64,000 nt of DNA, taken from assembly GCF_055900595.2 (NCBI RefSeq), contig NZ_CM148325.1; one strand, 5' to 3'. Positions 45,198-45,376 of this stretch are shown here, in pieces. The notes beneath the pieces are model-generated. The model made no database searches. It saw only the letters and a list, made by a program, of their open reading frames with translations, and was not told where the DNA came from. Each line of letters opens with the position of its first letter. Position 1 is the stretch's first letter. A program made the translations under genes and the position numbers.

Positions 45198-45254
45198 TCC
45201 CTACTCCACTCCTGCTATGCTTAAGAAATTATTCATAGACTCTAAATAATTCGA

Positions 45255-45372
45255 GTTGCAGGAAGGCGGCAAACGAGTGAAGCCCCAGGAGCTTACATAA
45301 GTAAGTGACTGGGGTGAACGAATGCAGCCGCAGCACATGCAACTTGAAGTATGACGAGTATGGCAGGAGTGG
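45255..45372. repeat. ERIC (enterobacterial repetitive intergenic consensus / IRU) element
   Basis: Contains gtgaagccccaggagcttacataagtaagtgactggggtgaacg, which closely matches the ERIC core used as the ERIC1R/ERIC2 primer sites; lies between dxs and yajO. Confidence 0.8.
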
Positions 45373-45376
45373 CAGC

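Follow-up and report, generated by a model that had tools for sequence, protein, structure and literature searches.

A full-length ERIC element in the dxs-yajO spacer of Escherichia coli and its position relative to the yajO promoter and ribosome-binding site

The spacer between dxs and yajO in the DNA analyzed here (a stretch of 64,000 nucleotides, referred to as the window) contains a canonical full-length ERIC/IRU element, and about half of E. coli genomes carry an ERIC at this site, between the yajO promoter and the yajO ribosome-binding site. The element as such is already known, as it belongs to a textbook repeat family and a copy is present in K-12. New here are its exact boundaries, its frequency among E. 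coli genomes, the identification of its target as a conserved yajO promoter and anti-Shine-Dalgarno hairpin, and a well-supported link, drawn by matching coordinates and motifs, that would connect the ERIC junction to a published antisense start and a published RNase III cluster. As a reading of the locus architecture the advance is modest, and as one more repeat copy the element has little importance, although it provides a clean two-state marker for E. coli typing; the locus as a whole is of greater use.

The explanation that we consider likely is that the ERIC, a miniature inverted-repeat element, has no dedicated regulatory role and is a tolerated passenger that has side effects. It would have landed at a TA atop a conserved hairpin, between the yajO transcription start (near 45228) and the Shine-Dalgarno sequence, and would be transcribed both in the yajO leader and in any read-through from dxs, forming a long hairpin in each of these RNAs. 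In K-12 the right end of the ERIC, joined to a native TGC, would create an extended -10 element that drives an antisense RNA across the ERIC into the 3' end of dxs, and the resulting sense/antisense duplex would be cut by RNase III. The window has a G at 45362, which changes the hexamer to CATACT, so that the antisense strand is probably transcribed less strongly here.

Identity, boundaries and distribution of the ERIC element

The dxs-yajO spacer extends from the end of the dxs TAA to the yajO ATG (45198-45376, 179 bp). The names of the flanking genes were transferred from a RefSeq record with 100% identity across 779 bp in which the gene order xseB-ispA-dxs-yajO is annotated; yajO encodes an alternative route to DXP. 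The preliminary description of this DNA, made from sequence alone, had reported a conserved ERIC core with both classical ERIC primer sequences in the spacer, and both were found. Primer ERIC2 (AAGTAAGTGACTGGGGTGAGCG) matches 45299-45320 on the plus strand and primer ERIC1R (ATGTAAGCTCCTGGGGATTCAC) matches 45277-45298 on the minus strand, each with one mismatch. Each primer has one site in the 64-kb window compared to none in 100 shuffles, and the 44-nt core likewise occurs once in the window and not in the shuffles. A literature search retrieved 233 papers in which the two primer sequences appear together.

Table 1. Coordinates of the features in and around the dxs-yajO spacer of the window.
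Feature	Position	Strand	Basis
dxs CDS	43335..45197	+	620-aa ORF; stop TAA 45195-45197; named dxs in NZ_CP098223.1
Native hairpin 5' arm, with CUCCUGC complementary to the yajO Shine-Dalgarno	45204..45222	+	Minimum-energy fold; inverted repeat I3
yajO extended -10, TGcTATGCT	45213..45221	+	Invariant in 69 spacers; K-12 start 6 nt downstream
Putative yajO transcription start	45228	+	K-12 438,284(-), transferred by sequence identity
Full-length ERIC/IRU, 127 bp including flanking TA / TG dinucleotides	45236..45362	+	Alignment with other ERIC copies
ERIC central core, both ERIC-PCR primer sites	45277..45320	.	Primer matching
Equivalent of strong K-12 antisense start, 13 nt inside ERIC right end	45350	-	Cappable-seq
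Native hairpin 3' arm, including yajO Shine-Dalgarno AGGAG (45365-45369)	45355..45374	+	Fold, covariation
Candidate antisense extended -10 at ERIC/native junction: TGcCATACT in the window, TGcTATACT in K-12	45357..45365	-	K-12 sequence
yajO CDS	45377..46351	+	324-aa aldo/keto reductase; Pfam PF00248 E = 1.3e-75; RefSeq annotation

The ends of the element were set by alignment with ERIC copies at four independent E. coli loci (pgk-fbaA, near rtcB, ybhJ-ybhI and ppa-chpB), in which the similarity begins and ends sharply at TATACTC...GAGTATA. This full-length alignment, which the preliminary description had proposed as its own check, supports the assignment: compared to the majority of the four other copies, the window ERIC differs at 8 of 127 positions and has no indels, corresponding to 93.7% identity over an ungapped 127 bp. 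One base is mutated in each terminus, so that the ends read TAGACTC ... GAGTATG instead of the consensus TATACTC ... GAGTATA, and beyond these two changes there are six internal copy-specific substitutions. The RNA of the element folds alone with -56 kcal/mol (z = -8.3), and none of 200 shuffles was equally stable. Because the boundaries are sharp, the alignment is gapless over its entire length and the fold is stable, we assign this segment as a canonical full-length ERIC/IRU element. That the match is a chance or partial resemblance has a negligible probability and is refuted by the uniqueness of the core relative to the shuffles, by the level of ungapped identity and by a clean 125-bp presence/absence difference between strains.

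In its general properties the window copy shows no essential difference from the ERIC/IRU/RU-1 family of Enterobacteriaceae (Sharples & Lloyd 1990; Hulton et al. 1991; Wilson & Sharp 2006). It is an imperfect palindrome that forms a long stem-loop, it is about 127 bp long, alignable over its full length and contains the central core with both primer sites, and it has TATACTC/GAGTATA-type terminal inverted repeats with TA ends and a duplication of the TA target. It is also strain-variable and intergenic, in a region that would be transcribed as judged by sequence identity to K-12, and the family is multicopy, with 2-10 megablast places per E. coli genome (median 6). Both an insertion polymorphism and a duplicated dinucleotide are observed at the dxs-yajO site; to our knowledge, no partner transposase is known for ERIC. 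Unlike a typical copy, the window ERIC carries the altered termini and the six internal substitutions described above. The element does not fill the spacer, as had first been thought, but occupies 127 of its 179 bases and leaves native sequence at both ends, 38 nt upstream and 14 nt downstream. Its right end had been placed immediately before the yajO start codon; it lies 14 nt before the ATG, adjoining the Shine-Dalgarno region.

Among 5426 complete E. coli genomes the spacer is filled by the ERIC in 2843 (2842 when counted by a right-junction probe) and the junction is empty in 2489, or ~52% and ~46%, respectively. The empty spacer of ST131 and O157:H7 is 54 bp long and reads ...TTCA-TG-GCAGG..., while the filled spacer has the arrangement TTCA-TA-ERIC-TG/TA-GCAGG, a net gain of 125 bp (45237-45361). 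Thus, the expectation that presence of the element varies between strains holds at this exact site, and the ERIC is usable as the strain marker that had been suggested, though with filled and empty genomes in these numbers it is a common one. The filled state is found in K-12, B, O103:H2 and O113:H21 and the empty state in O157:H7, ST131 and ATCC 25922; judged from these named strains, ERIC presence appears to follow lineage. The spacer of E. whittamii is also empty. The identity of the element, its limits and its polymorphism are in this way observed directly.

The spacer of K-12 MG1655 (NC_000913.3 438,136-438,314) is identical to that of the window at 178 of 179 bases, the single difference being at 45362, which is A in K-12 and G in the window; the RefSeq annotation has no repeat feature at the K-12 spacer. 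The two strains thus carry an ERIC at the same site with the same copy-specific substitutions, and differ in this base, which gives an antisense -10 hexamer of TATACT in K-12 and CATACT in the window, and in the flanking genes, which are ~5% diverged. Estimated from identity bands, ~1,140 filled genomes match the window G allele exactly, which places the G variant in approximately 40% of filled genomes, and ~1,700 filled genomes differ from the window at one or two spacer positions; most of the latter are presumably of the K-12 A type. The copy-specific substitutions GGCGGCAAACGAGTGAAGCCCC and TAGAC are common to the window, K-12 and E. albertii, and because they are shared, the window ERIC is evidently the same insertion as the K-12 and E. 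albertii copies.

In the type strain of E. albertii and in a minority of E. coli genomes, this same ERIC copy contains a nested 78-bp structured module, located at the equivalent of window 45321/45322 (E. coli E06, E. albertii) and resulting in a 257-bp spacer. The module was found in 646 of the 5426 genomes at 1-3 places each, with at least 99% identity in 121 of them and with 90-95% identity in 512, in which it probably occupies another locus.

The native hairpin and the yajO promoter

The ERIC is enclosed by a native structure. In the minimum-energy fold the two native arms listed in Table 1 pair with each other and form an outer stem around the ERIC hairpin; the filled spacer folds with -80.9 kcal/mol (z = -7.7) and the spacer of the empty allele with -28.9 kcal/mol (z = -5.0). 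We took the dxs-yajO junction from 80 Enterobacteriaceae species, 75 of which have a spacer of 54-75 nt that contains the hairpin, and assessed conservation over 69 distinct spacers from ~25 genera. The conserved 5' arm consists of ...C-N-CTCCTGCTATGCTT and the 3' arm of (T)AGCAGGAG-N'-GG, the latter being the yajO Shine-Dalgarno. Over 14 tested pairs, 86.9% of cells are paired in the 69 spacers, compared to 34-52% in shifted registers. The core of the hairpin is invariant, while compensatory changes occur at three outer pairs, such as CG 47 / UA 10 / UG 8 at one pair and GU 29 / GC 27 / AU 8 / UA 2 at another, and the covariation score was reached by none of 500 shuffles. Conservation of the hairpin, like that of the promoter motif described below, is a direct observation on these spacers; neither the hairpin nor the yajO promoter carries an annotation in the records examined. 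The insertion point of the ERIC is the TA at the top of the 3' arm, where the duplicated dinucleotide and the end of the ERIC rebuild the stem, so that the native elements survive.

Other spacers have also received ERIC-family elements. Phytobacter diazotrophicus, P. ursingii and Kosakonia sp. S29 contain spacers of 186-187 nt with an ERIC-family element of a different subtype, inserted at the homologous TA immediately 5' of the Shine-Dalgarno arm, and relatives of these carriers have clean empty sites. The metagenome-assembled genome UBA3516 retains at this TA only an internally deleted remnant of an ERIC-family element. Comparison of the spacers suggests at least two independent hits of the family on the same hairpin, and the homologous TA may be an insertion hot spot. 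If this is true, the Phytobacter and Kosakonia hits would point to structure-directed targeting.

Within the 5' arm, the sequence CTCCTGCTATG is invariant in the 69 spacers. Pairing does not explain the invariance of CTGCTATGCTT, as the partner bases vary. Instead, TGcTATGCT can be read as an extended -10 element, which predicts a transcription start near 45228. We predicted this coordinate from the motif ahead of retrieving the K-12 record, in which the yajO-only transcript (b0419) starts at 438,284 on the reverse strand of U00096.3, as determined by SMRT-Cappable-seq (PMC6131387, supplementary file 4). This position, for which SMRT-Cappable-seq is the one dataset, maps exactly to window 45228, 6 nt after the hexamer. 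The invariant TGcTATGCT is thus the promoter element of yajO, and as the window equals K-12 over this stretch, the K-12 yajO start probably applies to the window strain as well.

Two other candidates in this region were rejected. The invariant AUG at 45217 opens a mini-ORF, which in filled alleles encodes MLKKLFIDSK followed by a stop. Its peptides vary across genera, the AUG is located upstream of the K-12 yajO start, the TGcTATGCT -10 better explains the invariance, and the peptide is absent from the literature searched. A promoter-like site reported by a scan, TTAAGA-18-AATAAT at 45221-45250, has no supporting start-site data.

The yajO start in K-12 is 8 nt upstream of the ERIC. With a start at 45228, the ERIC would comprise positions +9 to +135 of the yajO leader, and the leader is 149 nt long in filled alleles versus 24 nt in empty alleles. 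On RNA made from the yajO promoter itself, opening the ribosome-binding site is predicted to cost 4.0-4.2 kcal/mol in filled alleles and 4.7 kcal/mol in empty alleles; on read-through RNA from dxs the corresponding predicted values are 18.8-19.5 and 24.9 kcal/mol. The high cost on read-through RNA suggests that the native hairpin should silence yajO there, and the ERIC itself leaves the ribosome-binding site open in silico.

The position of the ERIC downstream of dxs could also affect the dxs transcript. According to the model of De Gregorio (2005) for Yersinia, in which the ERIC covers or adjoins the upstream stop codon in the active orientation, terminating ribosomes would open the ERIC, unmask an RNase E site in the right arm of the element and thereby destabilize dxs mRNA. 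The window element is of the same repeat family, reviews describe an RNase E effect that depends on orientation, and the listing of xseB-ispA-dxs-yajO as one operon makes co-transcription plausible. However, the ERIC begins 39 nt after the dxs stop codon, too far for a terminating ribosome to reach, the native outer stem intervenes, and the full-length xseB-ispA-dxs reads of K-12 end before yajO, which makes this mechanism very unlikely here. Those reads, labelled 'ShorterEnd' in SMRT-Cappable-seq (PMC6131387), would also fit a proposal in which the native stem and the ERIC hairpin together act as a terminator or as a protective 3' end of the xseB-ispA-dxs transcript, as would the high stability of the composite structure. 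We nevertheless regard this proposal as rather improbable: a scan predicted no intrinsic terminator in the spacer, a U-tract is absent after the stem, and the native hairpin is already present by itself in empty alleles. A tolerated passenger within the yajO leader remains our preferred reading.

An antisense start and an RNase III cluster at the ERIC junction

In K-12, a start on the opposite strand lies 13 nt inside the right end of the ERIC. Cappable-seq detected a plus-strand start at 437,386 of U00096.2, which with a score of 38.7 is among the stronger starts in its neighborhood (PMC4782308); this K-12 position corresponds to window 45350 on the minus strand. Upstream of it K-12 reads cc-TG-c-TATACT, with six bases from the hexamer to the start. 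The native 3' arm contributes the TGc of this element, and the ERIC terminal repeat together with the duplicated TA makes up TATACT, while the empty allele reads ccTGccATGAAT at this position and has no usable -10. From this arrangement we infer that insertion of the ERIC created the antisense promoter. The dependence on ERIC draws on this sequence logic and on a single negative control, the ybhI-ybhJ ERIC, which is the only other K-12 copy within the start data examined. No start is present at its equivalent position in a region that the data cover, and the end of this copy is TATTCT with no TG upstream, so that the lack of a start supports a need for the junction context.

A second published dataset covers the same interval. 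Huang et al. 2020 used the p19 protein to capture ~21-nt double-stranded RNAs made by RNase III (PMC7373196), and their cluster S-43 (437,393-437,579, U00096.2) is the fourth most abundant of those overlapping coding genes. The authors attributed S-43 to a new unannotated antisense RNA, and ERIC is never mentioned (PMC7373196). When the K-12 gene table of that study is used for coordinate mapping (yajO 436,385-437,359; dxs 437,539-439,401; PMC7373196), S-43 maps to window 45157-45343, which takes in the final 41 nt of dxs, the native 5' arm and the greater part of the ERIC, and the edge of the cluster is 7 nt downstream of the start at 437,386. The K-12 ERIC junction very probably supplies the promoter of the S-43 antisense RNA. 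The first ~100 nt of this RNA are repeat, and some reads in the cluster are possibly mis-assigned, but unique dxs sequence is also covered.

As the G at 45362 removes the conserved first T of the hexamer, the antisense promoter is probably weaker in the window strain than in K-12. The preliminary description had also proposed that the element may affect yajO expression or mRNA stability. Such an effect is plausible because the K-12 maps place the ERIC in the yajO 5' UTR together with an antisense start and RNase III double-stranded RNA; a resulting change in the level of YajO is putative. That the ERIC rewired the locus, giving yajO a sixfold longer leader, a strong antisense promoter, a source of RNase III products, three natural expression states and structure-directed targeting, is a tentative proposal to which we give slightly less than an even chance. 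If it is true, ERIC presence or absence combined with A or G at 45362 would define three expression states of yajO and of the dxs 3' end, and the antisense/sense RNA of K-12 would be one of the most abundant sources of RNase III double-stranded RNA.

The apparent behavior of the K-12 junction resembles that of the Correia/NEMIS elements of Neisseria, which like ERIC are short elements with inverted repeats that insert at TA. Reviews describe Correia/NEMIS elements as containing promoter sequences whose activity has been measured and as giving transcripts that RNase III cleaves, traits that by analogy appear to match how the K-12 ERIC junction works. They are, however, an unrelated sequence family, a review table gives no DNA motif for ERIC, and the promoter described here would in addition need the native TGc. 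The K-12 junction would be a concrete and testable example of an ERIC that creates a promoter, a property that the reviews consulted ascribe to Correia elements and not to ERIC.

Rfam has no ERIC family, and its one hit on the ERIC is the sub-threshold match to RF02818 V_AS5 (Vibrio antisense RNA AS5). The alignment runs end to end (model 1-129, E = 5.9e-10) and the hairpin layout is the same, but the score of 52.5 bits is below the gathering threshold of 96, which places the ERIC outside V_AS5 membership. V_AS5 is probably a Vibrio relative of ERIC that is transcribed as an antisense RNA. Inside yajO, Rfam gives a weak hit to DicF (45523-45564, minus strand; 18.7 bits, E = 0.86), which is almost certainly due to chance. 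We also set aside an RNase III site or stabilizing hairpin given as '5' of yajO' by Gordon et al. 2017 (PMC5371410), which is a misprint for yajQ (panE-yajQ).

Conservation of the spacer in a divergent lineage

The flanks of the spacer, taken as 290 bp to either side, contain 29-33 differences per 580 positions from K-12, ST131, O157 and E. whittamii alike, so that dxs and yajO of the window are ~5% diverged from each of these, and only 18 of the 5426 complete E. coli genomes have at least 99% identity to the window over 779 bp (44898-45676). Based on this equal flank divergence and the small number of close genomes, the source of the window is a divergent Escherichia lineage labelled E. coli. 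The spacer does not share this divergence: it differs from K-12 at 1 of 179 positions compared to 29 of 580 in the flanking coding sequence (Fisher p = 0.004), and the segment 45183-45412 has one difference from K-12 in 230 bp, while neighboring coding sequence has 5-12 per 200 bp. The low divergence reflects either recent spread of the filled allele by homologous recombination or constraint, and it is not predicted for a purely neutral passenger unless the allele was imported recently.

Constraint of this kind would be expected if the ERIC were a selected regulatory module, in which the 5'-proximal hairpin, the antisense RNA and cleavage by RNase III tune YajO or the decay of dxs mRNA. The occupation of the homologous TA by ERIC-family elements in Phytobacter and Kosakonia sp. 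S29 and the abundance of RNase III products from the K-12 locus are also in favor of such a role. However, the ERIC is missing from 46% of complete E. coli genomes, among them the representatives of O157:H7 and ST131 that we inspected, the predicted accessibility of the ribosome-binding site is the same with and without it, and the G variant found in approximately 40% of filled genomes weakens the antisense -10. As recent recombinational spread can also explain the high conservation, we consider a selected module unlikely and favor a tolerated passenger with side effects.

Farther downstream, ~1.9 kb between yajO and pgpA (46352-48300) is absent from K-12. This segment includes a plus-strand ORF (46582-48111) for a 509-aa pentapeptide-repeat protein (PF00805, E = 2.4e-17; RefSeq WP_032302569.1 in strain Z0117EC0005).
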